From assembly GCF_030028105.1 (NCBI RefSeq), contig NC_092370.1:86944969-87008968 (forward strand): a DNA stretch of 64,000 nucleotides, given 5' to 3'. Positions 9,573-64,000 of this stretch are shown one piece after another. A model generated the notes under the pieces. That model was not told the origin of the DNA and did no database searches. It saw nothing but the letters and a program-made list of their open reading frames with translations. The DNA is from Mobula birostris. Taxonomy: Eukaryota. The number at the start of each line of letters is the position of its first letter. The first letter of the stretch is position 1. Made by a program: the position numbers and the translations under genes.

Positions 9573-12083
9573 TGCAAACACGAGGAATTCTGCAGATGCT
9601 GGAAATTCAAGCAACACACATCATAGTTGCTGGTGAACAGGCAGCATCTCTAGGAAGAGGTACAGTCCACGTTCAGGCTGAGACCCTTTGTCAGGACTAA
9701 CTGAAGGAAGAGCTAGTAAGAGATTTGAAAGTGGGAGGGGGAGGGGGGAATCCAAAATGACAGGAGAAGACAGGAGGGGGAGGGATGGAGCCAAGAGCTG
9801 GATAGGTGATTGGCAAAAGGAATATGAGAGGATCATGGGACAGGAGGCCCAGGGAGAAGGAAAATGGAGGGGGGGATCCCAGAGGATGGGTAAGGGGCAT
9901 AGTCAGAGGGACAGAGGGAGAAAAGGAGAGTGAGAGAAAGAATGTGTGTATATAACTAAATAACAAATGGGGTACGAGGGGAGGTGGGGCATTAGCGGAA
10001 GTTAGAGAAGTCAATTGTCTCCCACACCATCACCCAATTTATCCGCTCAGGGGATCTTCCATCCACTGCTACCAACCTTATAGTTCCCACACCACGCACT
10101 TCCCATTTCTACCTCCTACCCAAGAGCCACAAACCTGCCTGTCCTGGCAGACCTATTGTCTCAGCTTGCTCCTGCCCCGCCGAACTCATTTCTGCATACC
10201 TCGACACGGTTTTATCTCCCCTTGTTCAATCCCTTCCTACCTATGTTGGTGACACTTCTCACGCCCTTAAACTTTTCGATGATTTTAAATTCCCTGGCCC
10301 CCATTGCTTTATTTTTACCATGGATGTCCAGTCCCTATATACTTCCATCCCCCATCAGGAAGGTCTCAAAGCTCTCCGCTTCTTTTTGGATTCCAGACCT
10401 AATCAGTTACCCTCTACCACCACTCTGCTCCATCTAGCGGAATTAGTCCTTACTCTTAATAATTTCTCCTTTGGCTCCTCCCACTTCCTCCAAACTAAAA
10501 GTGTAGCTATGGGCACCCGTATGGGTCCCAGCTATACCTGCCTTTTTGTTGGCTTTGTGGAACAATCTATGTTCCGTGCCTATTCTGGTATCTGCCCCCC
10601 ACTTTTCCTTCGCTACATCGACGACTGCATTGACGCTGCTTCCTGCACGCATGCTGAGCTCGTTGACTTCATTAACTTTGCCTCCAACTTTCACCTTGCC
10701 GTCAACTTTACCTGGTCCATTTCCGACACCTCCCTCCCCTTTCTAGATCGTTCTGTCTCTATCTCTGGAGACAGCTTATCTACTGATGTCTACTATAAGC
10801 CTACTGACTCTCATAGCTATCTGGACTATTCCTCTTCTCACCCTGTCTCTTGCAAAAATGCCATCCCCTTCTCGCAATTCCTCCATCTCCACCACATCTG
10901 CTCTCAGGATGAGGCTTCTCATTCCAGGACGAGGGAGGTCCTCCTTTTTTAAAGAAAGGGGCTCCCCTTCCTCCACCATCAACTCTGCTCTCAAATGCAT
11001 CTCCCCCATTTCACGCACATCTGCTCTCACTCCACTTTCCCGTCACCCCACTAGGAATAGGGTTCCCCTGGTCCTCACCTACCACCCCACCAGCCTCCGG
11101 GTCCAACATATTATTCTCCATAAATTCCGTCACCGCCAACGGGATCCCACCACTAAGCACATCTTTCCCTCGCCCCCTCTTTCTGCTGTCCGCAGGGATC
11201 GCTCTCAACATGACTCCCTTGTCCATTCATCCCCCCCATCCCTCCCCACTGATCTCCCTCCTGGCACTTATCCGTGTAAGCGGAACAAGTGCTACACATG
11301 CTCTTATACTTCCTCCCTTACCACCATTCAGGGCCCCAGACAAGTCCTTCCAGGTGAGGCGACACTTCACCTGTGAGTCGGCTGGGGTGATATACTGTGT
11401 CCGGTGCTCCCGATGTGGCCTTCTATATATTGGCGAGACCTGACACAGATTGGGAGACCACTTTGCTGAACACCTACGCTCTGTCCGTCAGAGAAAGCAG
11501 GACCTCCCAGTGGCCACACATTTTAATTCCACATCCCATTCCCATTCTGATATGTCTATCCACAGCCTCCTCTACTGTAAAGATGAAGCTACACTCAGGT
11601 TGGAGGAACAACACCTTATATTCTGTCTGGGTAGCCTCCAACCTGATGGCATGAACATTGACTTCTCTAACTTCCGCTAATGCCCCACCTCCCCCTCGTA
11701 CCCCATCCGTTATTTATTTATATACACACATTCTTTCTCTCTCTCTCCTTTTTCTCCCTCTGACCCTCTGACTATACCCCTTGCCCATCCTCTGGGTTTC
11801 CCCCCCCCCACCCACCCCGCTTTCCTTCTCCCTGGGCCTCCTGTCCCATGATCCTCTCATATCCCTTTTGCCAATCACCTGTCCAGCTCTTGGCTCCATC
11901 CCTCCCCCTCCTGTCTTCTCCTATCATTTTGAATCTCCCCTCCCCCTCCCACTTTCAAATCTCTTACTAGCTCTTCCTTCAGTTAGTCCTGACGAAGGGT
12001 CTCAGCCTGTAACGTCGACTGTACCTCTTCCTAGAGATGCTGCCTGGAATGCTGCATTCACCAGCAACTTTGATGTGTGTTGC
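9573..12083 (+). mobile_element. Penelope-like element (Neptune-type) with an inverted 5' pseudo-LTR
   Basis: RT motifs MDVQSLYTSIP, AMGTRMGPSY, LRYIDD; Cys linker CKRNKCYTC; GIY-YIG GVIYCVRCSRCGLLYIGET. 9611-10015 is an inverted copy of 11657-12083. TSD taggatgtggaagga/taggatgcagaagga (9558-9572, 12084-12098). Frameshifted. Confidence 0.95.
11985..12020 (+). ncRNA. Minimal hammerhead ribozyme motif, mutated (GAAA->GTAA)
   Basis: agtc-CTGACGA-agggtctcagcct-GTAA-cg-TC-gact within the PLE terminal repeat. Confidence 0.6.
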
Positions 12084-12952
12084 TAGGATGCAGAAGGACT
12101 TAGACAGATTAGGAGAATGGGCAAGAAAGTGGCAAATGAAATATAATGTTGGAAAATGCATGGTCATGCACTTTGGTAGAAGAAATAAAAGTACGGACTA
12201 TTTTCTAAGTGAGGAGAAAATTCAAAAATCTGAGATGCGAAAGGACTTAGAAGTCCTTGTGCAGAACACCCTACAGGTTAACTTGCAGGTTGAGTCTATG
12301 GTGAGGAAGGCAAATGCAATGGTCCCATTGATTTCAAGAGGTCTAGTATACAAGAGCAAGGATGTGATGCTGAGGCTTTATAAAGCACTAGTGAGGTGTC
12401 ATCTTGAGTATTGTGAATAGTTTTGGGCTCTTCATCTAAGAAAAGATGTGTTGGCATTGGAGAAGGTTCAGAGGAGTTTCACAAGGATGAATCTGGGAAT
12501 GAAAGGGTTATCATACGAGGAATGTTTAATAGCTCTGGGTCTGCACTCGCTGGAATTTAGGAGGATTGGGGGGTGGGGGCGGAGTTTCATTGAAAACTTT
12601 TGAATGTTGAAAGGCCTAGACAGAATAGACGTGGAAAGGATGTCCAGGACAAGAGAGCACAGCCTCAGAGTAGAGAGGTGTCCATTTAAAACAGAGATGC
12701 AGGGAAATTTCTTTAGCCAGAGGGTGGTGAATTTGCAGAATTTATTACCACAGGCAGCCATGGAGCCCAGCTTGTTGGGTGTATCTAAGACAGAGCTTGA
12801 TAGGTTCTTGATTGGACTTGGCATCAAAGGTTACGGGAAGAAGGCCAGGGAATGGGGCTGAGGAGGGGAATGGTGGTTCAGCCATGTCTGAATGGCGGAG
12901 CAGACTCGACAGGACAAATGGCCTAACTCTGCTCCTATGTGTCGTGGTCTAA

Positions 12953-14857: not shown

Positions 14858-15638
14858 AAACACGAAGAATTCTGCAGATGCTGGAAATTCAAGCAACACA
14901 TATCAAAGTTGCTGGTGAATGCAGCAGGCCAGGCAGCATCTCTAGGAAGAGGTATAGTCGACGTTTCGGGCCGAGACCCTTCATCAGGACTAACTGAAGG
15001 AAGAGCTAGTAAGAGATTTGGAAGTGGGAGGGGGAGGGATGGAGCCAAAAGCTGGACAGGTGATTGGCAAAAGGGATATGAGAGGATCGTGGGACAGGAG
15101 GCCCACGGAGAAGGAAAAGGGGGAGGGGGGGGGAACCCAGAGGATGGGCAAGGGGTATAGTCAGAGGGACAGAGGGAGAAAAAGGAGAGAGAAAGAATGT
15201 GTGTATATAAATAAATAATGGATGGGGTACGAGGGGGAGGTGGGGCAGTAGCGGAAGTTAGAGAAGTCAATGTTCATGTTGGAGGCTACCCAGACAGAAT
15301 ATAAGGTGTTGTTCCTCCAACCTGAGTGTGACTTCATCTTTACAGTAGAGGAGGCCATGGATAGACATATAAGAATGGGAATGGAATGTGGAATTAAAAT
15401 GTGTGGCCACTGGGAGATCTCTGGCCTTCTCTGGCGGACAGAGCGTAGGTGTTCAGCAGAACCATCTCCCAGTCTGCGTCGGGTCTCGCCAATATATAGA
15501 AGGCCACATCAGGAGCACTGGATGCAGTATATCACCCCAGCCGAATCACAGGTGAAGTGTCGCCTCACCTGGAAGGACTGTCTGGGGCCCTGAATGGTGG
15601 TAAGGGAGGAAGTGTAAGGGCAAGTGTAGCACTTGTTT
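14858..15638 (-). mobile_element. Penelope-like element 3' part (GIY-YIG C-terminus plus terminal repeat)
   Basis: Near-identical reverse complement of 11283-12083 plus the terminal tail. Confidence 0.92.
14955..14992 (-). ncRNA. Minimal type I hammerhead ribozyme motif with intact core
   Basis: Minus strand reads TAGTC-CTGATGA-A-GGG-tctcgg-CCC-GAAA-CG-TC^GACTA: 5-bp stem I, both conserved boxes, 3-bp stem II, palindromic ACGT stem III. Predicted cut between 14960 and 14959. Confidence 0.8.
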
Positions 15639-17239: not shown

Positions 17240-19613
17240 AGAGTTTGTTAGGTGTGTTCAGGAAGGTTTCTTGACACAATATGTGGATACGCCTACACGA
17301 GGAGAGGCTGTACTTGATCTGGTATTGGGAAATGAACCTGGCCAAGTGTCAGATCTCTCAGTGGGAGAGCATTTTGGAGATGGTGATCACAATTCTATCT
17401 CCTTTACCATAGCTTTGGAGAAGAATAGGAACAGACAAGTTAGGAAAGTGTTTAACTGGAGTAAGGGAAATACGATGCTATCAGGCAGGAACTTCGAAGC
17501 ATAAATTGGAAACAGATGTTCTCAGGGAAATGTATGGAAGAAATGTGGCAAATATTCAGGGGATACTTGCATGGAGTTCTGCATAGGTATGTTCCAATGA
17601 GAGAGGGAAAGGATGGTAGCGGACGGGAACTGTGGTGTACAAAGGCTGTTGTAAACCTAGTCAAGAAGAAAAGAAGAGCTTACGAAAGGTCCAAAAAACT
17701 AGGTAATGATAGATATCTAGAAGACGATAAGACTAGCAGGAAGGAGCTTAAGAATGAAATTAGGAGAGCCAGAAAGGGCCATGAGAAGGCCTTGGTGGAC
17801 ATGATTAAGGAAAACCCCAAGGCATTCTACATGTACGTGAAGAGCAAGAGGATAAGACGTGAGAGAACTAATCAAGTTTGACAGTGGAAAAGTGTGTATG
17901 GAACCAGAGGAGATAGCAGAGGTACTTAATGAGTACTTTGCTTCAGTATTCACTACGGAAAAGGATCTTGGCAATTGTAGGGATGACTTACAGCGGACTG
18001 AAAAGCTGCAGCATGTAGATATTAGGGAAGAGGATGTGCTGGAGCTTTTGTAAAGCATCAAGTTGGATAAGTCACTGGGACCGGATGAGGTGTACCCCAG
18101 GCTACTGTGGGAGGTGAGAGAAGAGATTGCTGAGCCTCTGGCGATGATCTTTGCGTCAACAATAGGGACGGGAGAGGTTCCAGAGGACTGGAGGATTGCA
18201 GATGTTATTTCTTTATTCAAGAAAGGGAGTAGAGATAGCCCATGAAATTATAGACAAGTGAGTTTTACTTCAGTGGTTGGTAAGTTAATGGAGAAGATCC
18301 TGAGAGGCAGGATTTATGAACATTTGGAGAAGCATAATATGATTAGGAATAGTCAGCATGGCTTCATCAAAGGCAGGTTGTGCCTTACCAGCCTGATTGA
18401 ATTTTTTGAGAATGTGACTAAACACATGGATGAAGGTAGAGCAGTAGATGTAGTGTATATGGATTTCAGCAAGGCATTTGATAAGGTACCCCATGCAAGG
18501 CTTATTTAGAAAGTAAGGAGGCATGGAATCCAAGGGAACATTGCTTTGTTGATCCACAGAAGGCAAAGAGTGGTTGTAGGTGGGTCATATTCTGCATGGG
18601 GGGGGGGGGGGTCGTTGACCAGTGGTGTGCCTCAGGGATGTCTTCTGGGAATGCTGCTCTTCCTGATTTTTATGACCTGGATGAGGAAGTGGAGGGATGG
18701 GTTAGTAAATTTGCTGATGACACAAAAGTTGGAGGTGTTGTGGATAGTGTGTAAGGCTGTCAGAGGTTACAACGGGACATTGATAGGATGCAAAACTGGG
18801 CTGAGAAGTGGCAGATGGAGTTCAACCCAGATAAGTGTGAAGTGGTTCATTTTGGTAGGTCAAATATGATGGCAGAATATAGTATTAATGGTAAGACCCT
18901 TGGCAGTGTGGAGGATCAAGGGATCTTGGGGTCCGAGTCCATAGGACACTCAAAGCTGCTGCGCAGGTTGACTCTGTAGTTAAGAAGGCATACGATGCAT
19001 TGCCTTTCATCAATCGTGGGATTGAGTTTAGGAGCCAAGAGGTAATATTGCAGCTATATAGGACCCTGGTCAGACCCCACTTGGAGTACTGTGCTCAGTT
19101 CTGGTCGCCTCACTATAGGAAGGATGTGGAAACCATAGAAAGGGTGCAGAGGAGATTTACAAGGATGTAGCCTGGATTGGGGAGTGTGCCTTATGAGAAT
19201 AGGTTGAGTGAACTCAGCCTATTTTCCTTGGAGTGACAGAGGATGAGAAGTGACCTGATAGAGGTATATAAGATGATGAGAGGCATTGATTATGTGGATA
19301 GTCAGAGGTTTTTTCCCAGGGCTGAATGGCTAACATGAGGGGGCACAGTTTTAAGGTGCTTGGAAGTAGGTACAGAGGAGATGTCAGGGTAAGTTTTTTT
19401 ATGCAGAGGATGGTGAGTGCATGGAAGGGGCTGCCGGCGACAGTGGTGGAGGCGGATATGATAGGGTATTTTAAGAGGCTCCTGGATAGGTACATGGAGC
19501 TTAGAAAAATAGAGGGCTATGGGTAACCCTAGGTAATTTCTAAGGTGAGGACATGCTCGGCACAGCTTTGTGGGGCGAAGGGCCTGTATTGTGCTGTAAG
19601 TTTTCTATGTTCT
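17240..19613 (+). mobile_element. CR1 LINE, ~2.4 kb of ORF2 plus 3' UTR
   Basis: TQYVDTPTRGEAVLDLVLGNEPG, ENPKAFY, LNEYFASVFT, SQHGFIKG, YMDFSKAFDKVPH, WAEKWQMEFNPDKC; tail tttctatgttct. Confidence 0.95.
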
Positions 19614-42200: not shown

Positions 42201-42709
42201 GTTTATGTCACAATGATGGGGGTATTGGGAGCAAGGGTGGACCCAAATGCAAGACACATCTTGTGAGGTTACTTAGATTTAGTTTATTGCTTGATACCAG
42301 GAGAGCAAGGCAGGAGCAGGAAATAGCGAACTGGACAAGGACTTAGGACTATGACTAGGCTGGGAATAAGGGTCCGGACTTGGGCTCGGAATCGGATCCC
42401 AGAACTAGAGGAGACATGAAGAGGCTAGGGTATGGACTCCGAGCCAGAGACTGGGCAAGGACCCAGTACCTGGGTCTTGCCTCCGGCTTGGACCCCAGAA
42501 CCAGGCATGGACATGACATGGGCTAGGGAGAGGAGGAACATAGGAACACAGAGCCTCGGTCTCGGGAGAGCAAGTACATGGAACCATGGACACATACACA
42601 GAACACAGAGTCGGGACCCCTCCTTGGGTACAGGACATAGGGCCGGGACTCACACATAGAACAGAGAGCCGGGACCCCTCCTTGGGTACAGGACATAGGG
42701 CTGGGACTC

Positions 42710-43000
42710 ATGACCCTCAGCGGGGCAACGGCAAGATGGCCTGACTTACCCCACGGAGGCAAGGACAAGACAAGACAAAACATGACCCCCTGCGGAGCAA
42801 CGGCAAGATGGCCTGACCTACCCCATGGAGGCGAGGACAAGGCAAGACAAGATATGACTCCCCGCGGGGCAACGGCAAGACGGCCTGACTTACCCCACGG
42901 AGGCAAGGACCAGACAAGACAAAACATGACCCCCTGCGGAGCAACGGCAAGATGGCCTGACTTACCCCACGGAGGCGAGGACAAGACAAGACAAGACAAG
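42710..43000. repeat. 72-bp tandem repeat x4 (alternating dimer)
   Basis: atgacccc..gcaacggcaagatggcctgacttaccccacggaggc.aggacaagacaagac; reads as a 24-aa repeat MTPCGATARWPDLPHGGKDKTRQN. Confidence 0.9.
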
Positions 43001-43145
43001 ACCAACACGAATGAACACCAGACAGTACCTATCTAGCACCAGCGATGGAACTAGACCGAAGTGCAGGAGGGGGCTGCAGATGAGGGCTAGAGGCAAGAGG
43101 GGCAGAGGAGGGATTCAGACAAGGGGGTAGGACAGGAATCACAGA

Positions 43146-43656
43146 CCGCCAGGGCCAGGACTTGACTTGGTGCTTGAATGCCACTAGGGACAGGACTTGA
43201 CTTGGTGCTAGAATGCCGGCAGGGCGAGGACTTGACTTGGTGCTTGAATGCTGCCAGGGCCAGGACTTGACTTGGTGCTTGAATGCCACTAGGGACAGGA
43301 CTTGACTTGGTGCTAGAATGCCGCCAAGGCGAGGACTTGACTTGGTGCTTGAATGCTGCCAGGGCCAGGACTTGGTGCTTGAATGCCGCCAGGGCCAGGA
43401 CTTGACTTGGTGCTTGAATGCCGCCAGGACCAGGACTTGACTTGGTGCTAGGATGCCGCCAGGGACAGGACTTGACTTGGTGCTTGAATGCCGCCAGGAC
43501 CAGGACTTGACTTGGTGCTTGAATACCGCCGGAGCCAGGACTTGACTTGGTGCTTGAATGCCGCCAGAGACAGGACTTGACTTGGAACTTGAATGCCCCC
43601 GGATCCAGTACTTGACTTGGTACTTGAATGCCCCCAGAGCCAGGACTTGACTTGGA
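43146..43656. repeat. 35-bp minisatellite, ~15 copies
   Basis: Unit gccgccagggccaggacttgacttggtgcttgaat; period 35, with one 30-bp unit. Confidence 0.95.
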
Positions 43657-48755: not shown

Positions 48756-50257
48756 AAAGTACCTGTTAGTAACTTGCTGAGAGTATTTTGCCCCACTTAC
48801 ACTATACGTGCAAACTTTATTGAAGAAGTGGGCTTGTTTTCAGTTGAAAAATGAGAAAATCTGCAGATGCTGGAAATACAAGCAACACACACAAACTGCT
48901 GGAGGAACACAGCAGGCCAGGCAGCATCTATGGAAAAGAGTACAATTGGCGTTTCGGACCGAGTCCCTTCAGCAGGATTGGAGAAAAAGCTGAGGAGTAG
49001 AGTTAAAAAGTGGGGGGAGCGGTAGACAAGGGAAACAAAAGGTGATATATGAAACCTGAAGGGGGAGCAATGAAGTAAAGAGCTTGGAAATTGGTGAAAG
49101 AGATACAAGGCTGGAGAAGGGAGAGTATGATAGAAGAGGACAGAAGGCCATGGGAGAAAGTGGGGGGGGGGAGCACCAGAGGGAGGGAATTGGAGTGCAA
49201 GGAGATAAGGTGAGAGAGGGAAAAGGGAATGGGGAAAGGTGAAGGTCACTACCAGAAGTTCGAGAAATCAATGTTCATGCCATCAGGTTGGAGGCTACCC
49301 AGACGGAATATAAGGTGTTATTATTCCACCCTAAGTGTAGCCTCATCACGACAGTGGAGACGGCCATGGATAGACATGGAAAGTGGAATTAAAATTGGTG
49401 GTCACTGGGAGATATCACTTTTTCTGGCAGACAGAGTGTAGGTGCTTGGCGAAGCAGTCTCCCATCTATGGCGGGTCTCACTGATATACAGGAGGCCACA
49501 CTGGGAGCACCAAACACAGTATATGGCCCCAACAGTCTCATAGGTTAAGTGTCGCCTCACCTGAAAGGACTGTTTGGACCTGGACTATACCTCCTCCCAC
49601 CCTGTTACTTGTAAAAACGCCATCCCCTTCCCTGAATTCCTCAGTCTCCGCCGTATTTGCTGTCAGGATGAGGCTTTTCATTCCATATCGAAGATGTCCT
49701 ACTTTTTCAAAGAGAGGGGTTTCCTCTTCCTCCACCATCAATGCTGCCCTCAATCACACCTCTTCCATTTCACACACGTCTGCTCTTACCCCATCCTCTC
49801 ACCACCCTACTAGGGATAGGGTTCCTCTTGTCCTCACCTACCACACCAGCCTTTGTGTCCAGCACATAATTCTCCTCAGCTTCCACCATCTCCAACAGGA
49901 TCCCACCACGAAGTACATCTCACCCCCCCCCCAGCCCCCCCCCACACACACACACAGCCTTTCTGCTTTCCACAGGAACGCTCCCTTCGTGACTCCCTTG
50001 TCCATTTGTTCCCCTCCCCCCACTGATCTCCCTCCTGGCACTTATCCTTGCAAACGGAACAAGTGCTACACCTGCCCAACACCTCCTCCTCACTACCATT
50101 CAGGGCCATTAACAGTTCTTCCAGGTGAGGCGACACTTCACCTGCGAGTCTGTTGGGGTCATATACTGTGTCCGGTGCTCCTGGTGTGACCTCCTGCATA
50201 TTGGTCAGATCCGACGTAGATTTGGAGATCGCTTCGCCGAGCACATCTCCCAGTGGC

Positions 50258-50447
50258 TGTTGTGTTCTTATATTTATACGTACCGTGGGTTAACAATAAA
50301 GAATCATATTCTGAAAGAATTAGAACTTTTATTTACAGCAACAAAGCCAAACCACGTTTTTACCAAGCCACGTTCCAGATCATTCTATCATTTCTGCGCA
50401 TGCTCAGAACCCTTTCCAATCACGTTCTTACACGTGATATCACCACA
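50258..50447 (-). repeat. 3' LTR, preceded by the polypurine tract AAGGAAAGGAAGA (50448-50460)
   Basis: Direct repeat of 52400-52590. Confidence 0.95.
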
Positions 50448-50734
50448 TCTTCCTTTCCTTAAAAACAAAAACAATTAGCCACATTAACCAGAACAAACGC
50501 ATAATTTAACATGTTTTTATCAGTCTCTCTGGGGTTTACGAACACGAGGAGACCTTCTAAGTGGTTCACACAGTCCTTGTGTTTTGTTGTTTTTCCATGT
50601 TTTGTCTGGTTTGCATCAGTTAACTAAAACTCTGAAGTTGGCTCTTTCTTAAGGTCTTTGCGATTTCTTCTTAACACTGCTCTTTCTTCTGTTTGGACCA
50701 TGTATGACCTGCGTTGTACTTCTTCAAGTACTGT

Positions 50735-51135
50735 AGCTTTCTTAATTCCTTCCACTTCCACTTGTAATGAAATACGAATCTTCTTTTCTTCATCTAATTT
50801 ATCCATTCACTGTGTAATCTCTTTTTTATGCTGAGACTTCATCATTTCAATAACACTTCTCAATTCCTTCACTTGTGCTTTCACTTCTTCAATTGGATCC
50901 TGATTCTTGTCATTCTTTGGCTTCAGATCAGTATTGTACTGTACTGGCAAGTTTGGCCTCTGTCCTCCTGCAGAGGTGAGATTGTGATGGAATGCATGGC
51001 CCATTGATGCATGTGCATTACTTCCAGAGGGCAAAATTGCAACTCCTGGTTGTGGTGGCAATGCTTTGTCAGATGCTGGTAACAAAAGGATGGGTCTGGG
51101 AGCTTTCTTTATGACTTCTAGCCATTCTATTCTGT
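50735..51135 (-). pseudogene. SH3KBP1: Captured intronless fragment of SH3KBP1 (CIN85) C-terminus including the coiled coil
   Basis: SDKALPPQPG...GQRPNLP..NTDLKPK...[52 protein letters not shown] versus recalled human SDNKASLPPKPG...[53 protein letters not shown]. One in-frame TGA at 50807-50809. Confidence 0.88.
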
Positions 51136-52386
51136 CACCGTATTCTGACTCTGTGTCACTGTCCAGGACTAAGACTCTTTTCACCAAATTCAGTCTCTCA
51201 CAGACAGATAGACCCAGTATTGACTGTACATTCTTTGGCACCACCACAAATGAAAGCATGTGCACAATATTTTTGTGTGATACTTTTACCACACATGTTC
51301 CTTTAACTGGAATGTCTGCACCTGAATACCCAGTCACTTTTACATTTGTCTTATATAACTTTGGTCTTGGCTTTAATACATTAAACTCAGATTCTGCAAG
51401 AATATTTACTTGTGCTTCAGTACCAAGCACAAACAGAATATTGTTTTGCTTCACTTGCAATGGAATAGTCCAGTCATTCTTACTTTGTTTTCACAGAGCA
51501 TATCTATATAAAACTCCTCAAGTTCATTTTCAAGCACTGAATTTACTTGTTTTATTTTCATTCTACTTCTGCAACAGAGTGAAAAATTATTACTGTTACC
51601 GCAGTTGCTGCAGATTTTCCCATATGCTGGACACTGTTTAGGTCGATGCTGCCCACAGCGATCACATAGCTTAATTCTCTCAGATGACATCTTGCTCTCT
51701 GTCGGTTTTGTTGTCGTATTATTATTTATTCTAATATGTTTGCACTTTTTCACAGTGCAGCTCTGAATGAAAAGCTCTTTAGCCCGTGACATCATGGTTT
51801 CTGAAGCTTTGCAAAGCATCAAAGCTTTTGCTGTCTAAATCTTGTTCTCTTAACAGTCTTTCTCTCACACCATTATCCCAAATGTCACAAACAACTCTGT
51901 CTTTAGTGAGAGAGTCTGTCAGTTCTGCAAACTCGCATGATTTACTCCTGTGTCTCAACTCCATATTGATCAATTGTTTCAGCAGCTCTCTACGCACGTG
52001 TAAAAAATTTATGCCTTCCATACGTCACATTATGCTTCGGTATGCTTTAAATTTGTCCATTATCGATCCAATTTCAAATTACCTCCATCTTCAAAAATAA
52101 AGTGATTATATACCTCAATTGCGTCATCACTATTATGTGGAGTAGAAGCGCAGCTTTTGTTTTTTCCGGTTTTCTATCAGCTTCGATCGCCGATAAATAT
52201 ATTTCAAAACACTGCTTGAATTTTCTCCAGTTCTCAGCTACATTCCCAATCAGCTGAAGTGTCAGTGGAGGTTGCAAGCCTTCCATTTTTAAAACTGTTA
52301 GCGAACACCAGAACAGTTTGAACTCTTTTTTTCTTCGATTATCTTCGCTTCTCCCATGTTAGTGAACATATTATTCTTCCAGACCG

Positions 52387-52399
52387 ACTTCTGACACCA
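52387..52399 (-). other. Primer-binding site, tRNA-Leu type
   Basis: TGGTGTCAGAAGT immediately inside the 5' LTR, complementary to the tRNA-Leu 3' end ACTTCTGACACCA. Confidence 0.85.
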
Positions 52400-52590
52400 T
52401 GTTGTGTTCTTAATATTTATACGTACCATGGGTTAACAATAAGGAATCATATTCTGGAAGAATTAGAACTTTTATTTACAGCAACAAAACAAAACCACGT
52501 TTTTACCAAGCCATGTTCCAGATCATTCTATCATTTCTGCGCATTCTTAGAGCTCTCTCCAATCACGTTCTTACACGTGATATCACCACA
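52400..52590 (-). repeat. 5' LTR
   Basis: Direct repeat of 50258-50447, adjacent to the PBS. Confidence 0.95.
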
Positions 52591-53379
52591 GTGGCCACTC
52601 AATTTAATTCCACTTCCCATTTCCATTCCTCCTCCACTGTCGTGATGAGGCCACACTTAGGTTGGAGTAACAACACCTTGAATTCCATCTGGGTAGCCTC
52701 CAACCTGATGGGATGAACATGATTTCTTGAACTTCCGGTAATGACCACCCCTCCTTCACCTTTCCCCATCTCCTTTTCCCTCACTCACCTTATCTCCTTG
52801 CCCTGCCATTGCCTCTTCTGGTGCTCCTCCCCCTCTTCTTTCTTCCATGGCTTTCTGTCCTCTTCTATCAGATTTCCCCTTTCTCTTTCACCAATCAACT
52901 TCCCAGCTCTTTACTTCATCCCTCCCCCATCTTTTAAATCTGCTCAACTACTTTTCTCCAGTCCTGCCGAAGGGTCTCGGTCCAAAACGTCGACCATACT
53001 TTTTTTTCCCATAGATGCTGCCTAGCCTGCTGAGTTCCTCCAGCAGTTTGTGTGTTTTGCTTTGATTTCAGTTGAGCCTAATTTGTCTCGCAGATTCCAA
53101 ACATATTTGAAATTAAATCCATTCTAGGGGGGGTTGAGTTGCATTTTTAAATGAGTCTACAGTTTGGTTCACCTTTTGCAATGAAAATACAATTGCTACA
53201 GCTCGGAAGTGAGAGTGGAGGAGGTTATGGCACTTCACCATATGCTGGCAGATTTATGAACTCAAAGGAATCGAGCAAATAAATGACGACGAAAAGAAGC
53301 GTGAAAAACATGCAAAGACAACATGATGGGCACAGAAGGCAGCAGCGGCACAGGCAGAACAAAAGCAAGAACATGGTGA

Positions 53380-61060: not shown

Positions 61061-63302
61061 ATAGAACATAGAATGTAGAATAGTACAGCACAGTACTGGT
61101 CCTTTGGCCCACAATGTTGTGCCGACCCTCAAACCCTGCCTCCCATATAAGCCCCCGCCTTAAATTCCTCTATATATCTGTCTAGTAGTCTCTTAAACTT
61201 CACTAGTGTATCTGCCTCCACCACTGACCCAGGCAGTGCATTCCACGCACCAACCACTCTCTGAGTAAAAAACCTTCCTCTAATATCCCCCTTGAACTTC
61301 CCACCCCTTACTTTAAAGCCATGTTCTCTAGTACTGAGCAGTGGTGCCCTGGGGAAGAGGCACTGGCTATCCACTCTATCTATTCCTCTTATTATCCTGT
61401 TATCCTGTACACCTCTATCATGTCTCCTCTCATCCTTCTTCTCTCCAAAGAGTAAAGCCCTATCTCCCTTAATCTCTGATCATAATACATACTTTCTAAA
61501 CCAGGCAGCATCCTGGTAAATCTCCTCTGTACCCTTTCCAATGCTTCCATATCCTTCCTATAGTGAGGTGATCAGAACTGGGCACAGTACTCCAAATGTG
61601 GCCTAACCAGAGTTTTATAGAGCTGCATCATTACATCGCGACTCTTAAACTCTATCCCTCAACTTATGAAAGTTAACACCCCATAAGCTTTCTTAACTAC
61701 CCTATCCACCTGTGAGGCAACTTTCAGGGATCTGTGGACATGTACCCTGAGATCCCTCTGCTCCTCCACACTAGCAAGTATCCTGCCATTTACTTTGTAC
61801 TCTGCCTTGGAGTTTGTCCTTCCAAAGTGTACCACCTCACACTTCTCTGGGTTGAACTCCATCTGACAATTCTCAGCTCACTCCTGCATCCTATCAATGT
61901 CTCTCTGGAATCTTTGACAATCCTCTACACTATCTACAACACCACCAACCTTTGTGTTGTCTGCAAACTTGCCATCCCACCCTTCTACCCCCACATCCAG
62001 GTCATTAATAAAAATCACGAAAAGTAGTGGTCCCAGAACAGATCCTTGTGGGACACCACTAGTCACAATCCTCCAATCTGAATGTACTCCCTCCACCACC
62101 ACCCTCTGCCTTCTGCAAGCAAGCCAATTCTGAATCCACCTGGCCAAACTTCCCTGGATCCCATGCCTTCTTACTTTCTGAATAAGCCTACTGTGTGGAA
62201 CCTTGTCAAATGCCTTACTAAAATCCATATAGATCACATCCACTGCACTACCCTCACCTATATGCCTGGTCACCTCCTCAAAGAACTCTATCAGGCTTGT
62301 TAGACACGATCTGCCCTTCACAAAGGGCTGACTGTCCCTGATCAGACCATGATTCTCTAAATGCCTATAGATCCTATCTCTAAGAATCTTTCCCAACAGC
62401 TTTCCCACCACAGATGTAAGGCTCACTGGTTTATAATTACCCGGACTATCCCTACTACCTTTTCTGAACAAGGGGACAACATTCGCCTCCCTCCGATCCT
62501 CTGGTACCATTCCCGTGGACAACGAGGACATAAAGATCCTAGCCAGAAGCTCAGCAATCTCTTCTCTCGCCTTATGGAGCAGCCTGGGGAATATTCTGTC
62601 AGGCCCCGGGGACTTGTCTGTCCAAATGTATTTTAACAACTTCAACACCTCCTGTCCCTTAATATCAACATGCTCCAAAACATCAACCTCACTCATATTG
62701 TCCTCACCATCATCAAGTTCCCTCTCATTGGTGAATACTGAAGAGAAGTATTCATTGAGGACCTCGCGCACTTCCACAGCCTCCAGGCACATCTTCCCAC
62801 CTTTATCTCTAATCGGTCCTACCTTCACTCCTGTCATCCTTTTTATCTTCACATAATTGAAGAATGCCTTGGGGTTTTCCTTTACCCTACTCACCAAGGC
62901 CTTCTCATGCCCCCTTCTTGCTTTTCTCAGCCCCTTCTTAAGCTCCTTTCTTGCTTCCCTATATTCCTCAATAGACCCATCTGATCCTTGCTTCCTAAAC
63001 CTCATGTATGCTGCCTTCTTCCACCTGACTAGATTTTCCACCTCACTTGTCACCCATGGTTCCTTCACCCTACCATTCTTTATCTTCCTCACTGGGACAA
63101 ATTTATCCCTAACATCCCGCAAGAGATCTCTAAACATCGACCACATGTCCATAGTACATTTCCCTGCAAAAACATCATCCCAATTCACATCCGCAAGTTC
63201 TAGCCTTATAGCCTCATAATTTGCCTTTCCCCAATTAAAAATTTTCCTGTGCTCTCTGATTCTATCCTTTTCCATGATAATGCTAAAGGCCAGGGAGCGA
63301 TC
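61061..63302 (-). mobile_element. Relatively young CR1 LINE (long RT-containing ORF2 remnant)
   Basis: PWVTSEV, ENPKAFF, KSPGPD, NYKPVSLTS, YMDFSKAFDKVPH, GVPQGSVLGPLLF. Catalytic FADD is mutated to FADN; 5'-truncated. Confidence 0.96.
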
Positions 63303-63359
63303 AAGGGCTCCCGGCAGTGGTGTAGGATGTCCTGTTACTAAATCAAATGGACTTGGTTT

Positions 63360-64000
63360 AGTTTTTTTAAAATACAAATTTTTATTATTATTTATTCTTA
63401 TTTTACAAAGCAGCACAGCATATCACAGAGCAGATACAGTACAGCATATTTACACAGCCATCTCATAACAGGAAAACAAATAAAACTTAGAGACAGAAAG
63501 AAGTTCTAATTTAAGTTTAAATTAACATGCAACCTAAATTGATCCCACACGTCTTGCACTTTTCCCTCACTGTTAATTCCTCCCAGCATGTGTTCATATA
63601 ATGAAATCTTAATCATTTCCTCAGTCCATTCCTTTACAGTGGGACATCTGGGTTTTTTCCAGTTTTGCAATATAATTTTTGCAACTGTGATGAGACCCAC
63701 CTTTAAAATAGTAAATTTGTCATTGTTTACATAAGGTATCATTGTCCTATCGCCCAGGAGACAAAGCCGTGGGCACAAGGGCAGTGTGGAACCCGACCAA
63801 TTCCCCAACAGATCAGGAACTTTACACCAAAATGGAAGAACCATGGAACACTCCCAAATCGTGAAAATACGTGCCCACCTCATTTTTACATTTCCAGCAT
63901 AAGTTATTATCAATAATCCCCGTTTTGTACAGTCTAGTTGGTGTCCAATAATATCTGTGTACTATCTTATACTGAATAAATTTCCCTCTCATTTCCCTAA
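63360..64000 (-). mobile_element. L1-clade LINE 3' end
   Basis: ORF2 C-terminus PFW...PLCPRLCLLG...AKIILQNWKKPRCPTVKEW, followed by AATAAA and an A-rich tail on the minus strand. Confidence 0.8.

Follow-up and report, generated by a model that had tools for sequence, protein, structure and literature searches.

A Ty3/Gypsy-derived family in Mobula birostris carrying spliced pieces of SH3KBP1, RABEP1 and SLU7

The element in the window and its SH3KBP1 insert

The window analysed here is a stretch of 64,000 nucleotides from the ray Mobula birostris (contig NC_092370.1, positions 86,944,969 to 87,008,968). Between positions 50258 and 52590, on the minus strand, it holds a decayed, non-autonomous derivative of a Ty3/Gypsy retrotransposon that lacks the reverse transcriptase (RT)-RNase H-integrase core and carries a piece of the host gene SH3KBP1 (CIN85) in its place. 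Its parts, in the element's own 5′ to 3′ order, are as follows.

52591..52595, minus strand: target-site duplication GCCAC, 5′ side
52400..52590, minus strand: 5′ long terminal repeat (LTR), 191 nt, TG...CA
52387..52399, minus strand: primer-binding site, 13 nt; its complement is the 3′ end, CCA included, of a tRNA whose gene in the same genome has an intron
51490..52286, minus strand: gag, broken by frameshifts and stops here (blastx against the full Gypsy polyprotein P0032)
~51666-51571, minus strand: Cys/His knuckle region of gag
51138..51489, minus strand: aspartic protease (PR) and linker (match to P0032; Pfam gag-asp_proteas E 0.042, below the cut-off)
51424-51416, minus strand: catalytic motif of the protease, broken in the window copy
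51134..51137, minus strand: TGAC microhomology of a secondary in-frame 150-nt pol deletion
51120..51133, minus strand: remnant of the start of reverse transcriptase
51104..51119, minus strand: pol-to-SH3KBP1 switch zone, with the exact core GTCATAAA at 51115-51108
51077..51119, minus strand: SH3KBP1 exon piece 1, 95% identity; the host exon ends at G000:C7:81005355
50826..51076, minus strand: SH3KBP1 insert exon 2, whole, 97% identity; host C7:81009576-81009826
50762..50825, minus strand: SH3KBP1 insert exon 3, whole, carrying TGA at 50809-50807; host C7:81010922-81010985
50736..50761, minus strand: start of the last SH3KBP1 coding exon; host from C7:81012997
50516..50735, minus strand: integrase C-terminal tail, with a stop at 50626-50624 in the window copy
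50448..50460, minus strand: polypurine tract
50258..50447, minus strand: 3′ LTR, 190 nt
50253..50257, minus strand: target-site duplication GCCAC, 3′ side

The hallmarks of Ty3/Gypsy elements are present, namely paired TG...CA LTRs, a short target-site duplication, a tRNA primer site and a polypurine tract, and parental copies in the same genome show the pol order PR-RT-RNase H-integrase, collinear with P0032. Compared with P0032, the closest full polyprotein found (1285 amino acids, with Pfam protease, RT, RNase H and integrase domains), the window copy has kept gag, the protease, the integrase tail and a handful of RT residues, and is without approximately residues 453-1209; by this blastx comparison it has no RT, RNase H or integrase core of its own and thus is not autonomous. 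The two LTRs are 94% alike (Kimura two-parameter distance, K2P, of the pair 0.061), and bringing the two flanks together at a single GCCAC gives a sequence that agrees with unbroken copies of an older repeat present at other places in the window. The priming tRNA, which we take to be tRNA-Leu(CAA), received an Rfam tRNA call at two of the three genomic loci tested, and ARAGORN reported none for it. One frame, from 51460 to 50624, is open except for a single TGA at 50807-50809. The first-pass annotation had proposed this layout and this frame from the letters alone; the former is upheld by the LTR pair, the GCCAC duplication, the primer site and the P0032 alignment, and the latter by a frame check. 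It had also called the copy decayed, and gag is indeed frameshifted and the protease motif broken, though that motif reads DTG in 29 of 43 SH3KBP1-class loci.

The insert (51119-50736, 384 nt) comprises four exons and is 96.6% identical to spliced host SH3KBP1, the gene for which lies on C7. Its three exon-exon joins coincide exactly with host GT-AG introns of 4220, 1095 and 2011 bp. Since three host introns have been removed exactly, the insert was captured from spliced SH3KBP1 mRNA, as the first-pass annotation had supposed, and the absent introns rule out capture of a genomic piece at the DNA level. Exon 2 covers the Pro/Ser-rich region and the beginning of the coiled coil, and the insert stops four sense codons short of the host stop. 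Its best structure matches are the SH3KBP1 coiled coil entries PDB 2n64 and 5abs (E 4e-5). The insert agrees with SH3KBP1 of Mobula hypostoma at 94% across 99% of the query (E 1e-67), ahead of Pristis (91%) and Hemitrygon (90%); the last 117 residues of the host gene, which were compared, are those of M. hypostoma. SH3KBP1 had been preferred to CD2AP, and rightly: the best protein matches are SH3KBP1, no CD2AP name occurs among the 29 protein matches, and the genome's own SH3KBP1 exons fit at 95-100%. The window copy is not a functional SH3KBP1/CIN85 paralogue, for which three SH3 domains and an intact frame would be expected; it holds only host residues 540-667, interrupted by a stop.

Parent and host share bases at both switch points, which supports the microhomology-guided template switching proposed earlier, and exact microhomologies of 4-8 bases occur at the capture and shuffling points. 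At the 3′ switch, parental integrase and host SH3KBP1 both have AGAAAGC (window 50742-50736), and this 7-mer replaces the AAGAAAGCT first put forward. At the 5′ switch, GTCATAAA is common to the host and most parental copies, inside a 16-nt stretch that agrees at 13 places, or at 14 with the Glu-coding form retained in locus L071. The 5′ junction had been placed at 51135. The host piece begins at 51119, the DRIEWLE upstream of it is pol and not host, and the TGAC join at 51137-51134 is a secondary in-frame deletion of 150 nt, for which 23 loci are deleted and 12 undeleted. A longer SH3KBP1 capture, starting ~15 codons further upstream, persists in L047, L071 and L232 (and in the recombinant L019). 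It keeps the Glu of KVKEVIKK as in Hemitrygon and Pristis, where this genome's gene has Asp. The 5′ junction of the long capture is probably the original one, and the order of events would have been long capture, recombination with the parent and then the 150-nt deletion.

Locus L232 (G000:C6:3332289-3335457) has a further peculiarity. At oriented positions ~2220-2750 its parental RT is interrupted by a chimeric piece (linker, SH3KBP1, integrase tail and polypurine tract) bordered by a repeated LTR-start-like motif. The arrangement suggests that, with parent and chimera RNAs packaged together, the template was switched from one to the other and back.

A family with three captured host genes

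The family was surveyed in 164 distinct loci, which were the top matches of six queries and not a random sample, and their proportions are not genome-wide; first-look candidates, likewise, are not copy numbers. Host pieces were found in 127 of the 164: SH3KBP1 only in 45, RABEP1 only in 11, both in 22, and SLU7 in addition to both in 49. Another 36 have the RT/integrase core and one falls in no class. The insert is not a normal part of the family, as these 36 loci have the RT/integrase core in its place. The SH3KBP1-insert query gave 445 first-look candidates, and the 40 that were scored are all near full-length, comprising the window copy itself and 39 at 93-96%.

The second cargo, exposed by a search with the integrase tail, is the coiled coil at the N-terminus of RABEP1 (Pfam Rabaptin, E 1e-44; 227 first-look candidates), in which two exons are joined and a 9036-bp intron is gone. 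The third is SLU7 (90 first-look candidates), with three exons and two introns removed; the introns lost thus number three for SH3KBP1, one for RABEP1 and two for SLU7. The second SLU7 intron lost in capture has a GC-AG donor in the host (G000:C8:121974739, L175). Some elements have the SH3KBP1 coiled coil recombined into or behind the RABEP1 piece, and up to all three host pieces stand behind gag in Gag-(PR)-RABEP1-SH3KBP1(-SLU7) frames. Derived subfamilies retain the SH3KBP1 coiled coil and drop the proline-rich part, the three-gene class is mostly without protease (Gag is joined directly to the helix in 27 of 31 loci), and the SLU7 class is without most of the integrase tail. The 3′ end of the three-gene class carries a duplicated block of ~200 nt and a second polypurine-like stretch past the new stop in 34 loci (e.g. 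L146 ~1740-1850). No fourth captured gene was seen among 60 loci of two further queries, a search that was not exhaustive, and the inserts there were unrelated repeats.

Full-length parental copies (PR-RT-RNase H-integrase, ~4.4 kb) occur in the same genome and were also located through the integrase-tail search. Their pol ends ~60 nt before the 3′ LTR, leaving no room for an env gene. When element ends were allowed to slide and only 5/5 matches were counted, 16 of the 32 loci having both ends showed a perfect 5-bp target-site duplication, and all 16 were different. LTR-pair K2P distances range from 0.039 to 0.134, with class medians of 0.09-0.12. Flanks and duplications differ, which rejects segmental duplication as the source of the copies. 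The chimera has thus been copied to many sites, and RABEP1 and SLU7 pieces have been taken up and recombined with SH3KBP1 by sister lineages. The first-pass annotation had noted that all cis signals for mobilisation in trans remain in the window copy, and the many dispersed copies with distinct duplications agree with it.

Presence in related rays, also raised there, was found in annotated proteins with the same junctions. In Hemitrygon akajei, P0006 is the undeleted SH3KBP1 form and P0023 is RABEP1-SH3KBP1-RABEP1, and in Hypanus sabinus P0086 is PR-RABEP1-SH3KBP1. The RefSeq proteins that copy chimeric elements are XP_072880776.1 and XP_072897951-3.1 (H. akajei) and XP_059819315.1 (H. sabinus), filed as 'rab GTPase-binding effector protein 1-like' and 'uncharacterized'; they include an uninterrupted chimeric protein of 321 amino acids in H. 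akajei with three accessions. Because the junctions are the same, the masters are probably older than the split of stingrays and devil rays roughly 70-90 million years ago; horizontal transfer may instead lie behind junctions common to several rays. Fourteen sequencing runs of eight organisms have 0.28-0.42 of the words, shares to which SH3KBP1 itself and the parent contribute, and for this reason only the annotated Hemitrygon and Hypanus proteins count as proof elsewhere. Element-derived contigs were present in all four runs examined (three guessed to be RNA, one of unknown kind) and were far shallower than those of the host gene in X15 and X17. One X17 contig (record 20; run guessed RNA) spans the protease and the long SH3KBP1 form, its strand, start and level not being readable.

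Two other annotated proteins are Rabaptin-like but have unrelated ends, and are probably gene-model fusions: P0087 (703 amino acids), which by eye has an RT-like tail, and P0102 (Carcharodon XP_041035956.1), which has an Ig-like membrane-protein start.

Within the window, the element is inserted in an older dispersed repeat (49237-50257 and 52591-53069), of which further copies lie at ~10821-12084, 14884-15637 and 48873-49418. Other RT frames, probably non-LTR, are found at 61881-63422 (minus strand), 9996-10949 (plus strand) and 17416-19499, the last being similar to 61168-63274; Pfam RVT_1 matches among these frames have E 8e-22 and 1e-4. GC-rich tandem arrays with units of 58, 72 and 35 nt (the 35-mer in 14.7 copies) occupy 42588-43655 and have long stop-free frames with no Pfam match over the cut-off.

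Reading frame, selection and competing explanations

Junctions with identical offsets were treated as one class. All 12 classes present in at least five loci are in frame, as are 15 of the 17 with a defined frame in at least two loci; among single-copy junctions the figure is 21 of 41, with some compound joins, or joins counted twice, in that number. Of 162 private gaps of at least 4 nt, 56 have a length divisible by three. The first-pass annotation had assumed a chance of 1/3 per in-frame join (1/9 for two), which is too low: once microhomology is required, the null is 0.38-0.47 per junction for exact 4-8-mers and 0.38-0.43 for imperfect matches. At the upper value, 12 in-frame classes have a probability of 0.47^12, or ~1e-4, and a Fisher test of 14/2 against 21/20 (in/out of frame) gives p=0.015. 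The integrase tail itself is not the thing kept, because the SLU7 class lost most of it. Judged across the family, selection very probably maintained the frame. The earlier reading of the preserved frame is thus partly supported, on the evidence of the whole family and not of two junctions.

Neutral baselines for the ratio of nonsynonymous to synonymous polymorphism (pN/pS) were derived from the observed mutation spectrum, and were 0.65 for gag, 0.57 for the SH3KBP1 coiled coil, 0.73 for its proline-rich part, 0.64 for RABEP1 and 0.66 for SLU7. Within chimeric classes gag has a pN/pS of 0.39-0.51. Shared class-specific changes in gag have a nonsynonymous:synonymous count of 11:11 in the three-gene class, against 269:60 for singletons (p=0.0012), and of 15:11 against 255:66 in the SH3KBP1 class (p=0.024). 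Deletions removing at least 150 nt of gag number eight and are all single-copy, while pol deletions are shared by dozens. Among the 30 best loci with gag of the three-gene type, none has RT, 29 run into RABEP1 and one is cut off. By these substitution counts, gag shows purifying selection. For the host segments, pN/pS was 0.59-0.69 in the SH3KBP1 coiled coil, 1.06 in the proline-rich part, 0.52-1.16 in RABEP1 and 0.62 in SLU7. A dN/dS test of the insert had been suggested as a probe of past function; the SH3KBP1 residues appear to evolve at about the neutral rate, and selection on host residues is not clear.

These results lead us to favour, as rather probable, an account in which elements without pol are moved by enzymes supplied in trans while keeping in cis a gag that can be translated and a frame that stays open, the host pieces being mainly passengers. 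Several observations weigh against it. The RABEP1+SH3KBP1 class shows no such signal in gag (6:5 versus 191:83, p=0.32). The pooled host segments give 11:8 versus 398:113 (p=0.052), which is unexpected for pure filler. Within the same copies, diversity is much higher in gag than in the insert (pS 0.22 versus 0.05-0.06), and because of this part of the gag signal may have been inherited, through recombination, from unsampled autonomous helpers. The frame is also not kept everywhere: two classes are out of frame, a 44-nt deletion in 4 loci (mostly past the three-gene class's stop) and a variant of 2 nt in 2 loci, and 17 of 93 SH3KBP1 loci share the loss of one nucleotide six codons ahead of the 3′ junction. 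This is the one common frameshift, and its late position, with the frame closing only 30-50 codons on, counts in favour of the account. Smaller shared slips, in repeats, are a 1-nt insertion in an A run (7 loci), a 5-nt deletion (3-4 loci) and a 4-nt deletion directly behind gag (7 loci). Finally, defective elements of Ty1 in yeast are reported to be mobilised in trans as efficiently as competent ones, with no cis preference (PMC3945221).

The Ty1 behaviour and the spread of a frameshifted variant to 17 loci would sit well with a wholly neutral history, in which microhomology accidents, codon-structured matches and a few lucky founders produced the pattern and amplification needs only LTRs, primer-binding site, polypurine tract and small size. 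The high in-frame chance already given by microhomology, and the 51% of single-copy junctions that are in frame, point the same way. We nevertheless regard such a history as decidedly unlikely, given the ~1e-4 for the 12 common classes, the Fisher result, the purifying signal in gag of two pol-less classes, and gag deletions that are never shared where pol deletions are.

The lean of the pooled shared host changes towards synonymous sites is relevant to a second alternative, in which Gag extended by the RABEP1 and SH3KBP1 helices and a Lys-rich, basic SLU7 stretch would oligomerise, localise or enter helper particles better, so favouring pol-less RNAs and helping their lineage to parasitise the helper. 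Of the three captured pieces, two come from endocytic adaptors and are coiled coils, the derived subfamilies keep the coiled coil of SH3KBP1 and lose its proline-rich part, and most three-gene elements have discarded the protease and fused Gag straight to the helix. The SH3KBP1 coiled coil of the three-gene class gives 1:3 versus 95:26 (p=0.039), one of ten tests. A single-sequence fold model predicts that the RABEP1-SH3KBP1 fusion forms a single helix (residues 2-135), but the components by themselves would lead one to expect a long helix under all readings. Host-segment pN/pS is close to the neutral expectation, shared changes in SLU7 are mostly replacements (9 of 13), and a non-CpG test of host residues against the host gene gives p=0.18. 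A contribution of the host domains to the element is therefore, in our judgement, unlikely.

The first-pass annotation had likened the window element to oncogene transduction. Such a Gag-PR-CIN85 fusion would influence signalling in the host (a dominant-negative effect on CIN85 oligomers is one example), or would be a copy that the host has domesticated. It could draw on the in-frame fusion, the uninterrupted 321-residue protein annotated in H. akajei, and the X17 contig that bridges protease and SH3KBP1; yet the RNA status of that run is guessed, and repeats are passively transcribed within introns. The window copy is broken, no SH3 domains are carried, the CIN85 residues are near neutral, derived subfamilies have lost the proline-rich part, 17 of 93 loci share a frameshift close to where the insert ends, and an env gene would not fit into the parent. 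We consider this explanation very improbable, and the functional fusion proposed earlier is unsupported.

Proposed mechanism, known systems and significance

Under the account favoured here, host mRNA would have been co-packaged in particles of the intact parent, and reverse transcriptase would have jumped to the host mRNA and then back; L232 has the look of an intermediate in such switching. The chimeric RNA, retaining LTRs, primer-binding site and polypurine tract, would be copied in trans by the parent's enzymes and would recombine with helper and sister RNAs. In the least secure step, amplification would have favoured masters that still translate Gag and whose frame runs on without a stop almost to the 3′ end. 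Possible reasons for such frame-keeping are supply of Gag or packaging in cis, or stability of the RNA against decay at premature stops. For Ty1, stability of the RNA may likewise need some translation (PMC3945221). The host pieces would then have been filtered mostly as open-frame filler and not for a function of their own.

The features tested place the ray family among the LTR-mediated retrocopies of Tan et al. 2016, who described them in fly and mosquito and in zebrafish, chicken, mouse and human (PMC5131818). It shares with them an intron-less partial mRNA inside the internal open reading frame, microsimilarity at the switches, both LTRs retained, several parental genes per locus and later copying as a non-autonomous element (PMC5131818). 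In contrast to the 1-10 retrocopies per species and few insertion sites given there, the ray subfamilies have tens of loci and hundreds of candidates, and they differ further in the serial reshuffling of three genes, the in-frame fusion to gag at nearly all amplified junctions and the purifying selection that gag appears to show. Similarly, maize Bs1 is an LTR element with exonic pieces of three host genes behind its own sequence in a chimeric reading frame; it is described with one to five copies per species and one of three pieces out of frame, and is reported to be transcribed and translated (PMC5131818, PMC13317346). The ray family, unlike Bs1, is high-copy and has all three pieces in frame. 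The mechanism is therefore already known; the scale and the frame-keeping are new.

Acutely transforming retroviruses carry gag-onc fusions. As in these viruses and in the FAM8A1 retrocopy of a human endogenous retrovirus, a named precedent (PMC5131818), host mRNA was taken up by template switching, pol was lost and a helper is needed. Unlike them, the vehicle in rays is an env-less Ty3/Gypsy element with no clear sign of selection on the captured protein. A transducing retrovirus is rejected, as the ~60 nt between pol and the 3′ LTR of the 4.4-kb parent leave no env-bearing infectious parent. The nearest intact relatives compared are the 'K02A2.6-like' Ty3/Gypsy elements of fishes and amphibians (P0032-P0040), which have the same Gag-PR-RT-RNase H-integrase single frame, on which the junction positions can be mapped. 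The ray family is ~60% identical to them in the protease-linker region, and they are without host sequence. No earlier description of the ray family was found in a literature search that lay outside subscription journals, Repbase, Dfam and supplements.

The chimeric copies filed as RefSeq genes will inflate family counts for SH3KBP1, RABEP1 and SLU7 and disturb read mapping in rays. For the biology of the elements, one vertebrate genome preserves, like a fossil series, the parent as well as first captures, recombinants and derivatives formed by deletion, with many dated copies. Two questions thereby become countable: whether a translatable gag and an open frame must be present in cis for non-autonomous LTR elements, and whether host domains, once captured, are ever useful to them. 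If the latter were true, it would be transposon domestication turned around, with host domains recruited to serve a selfish element in the course of tens of millions of years of ray evolution.
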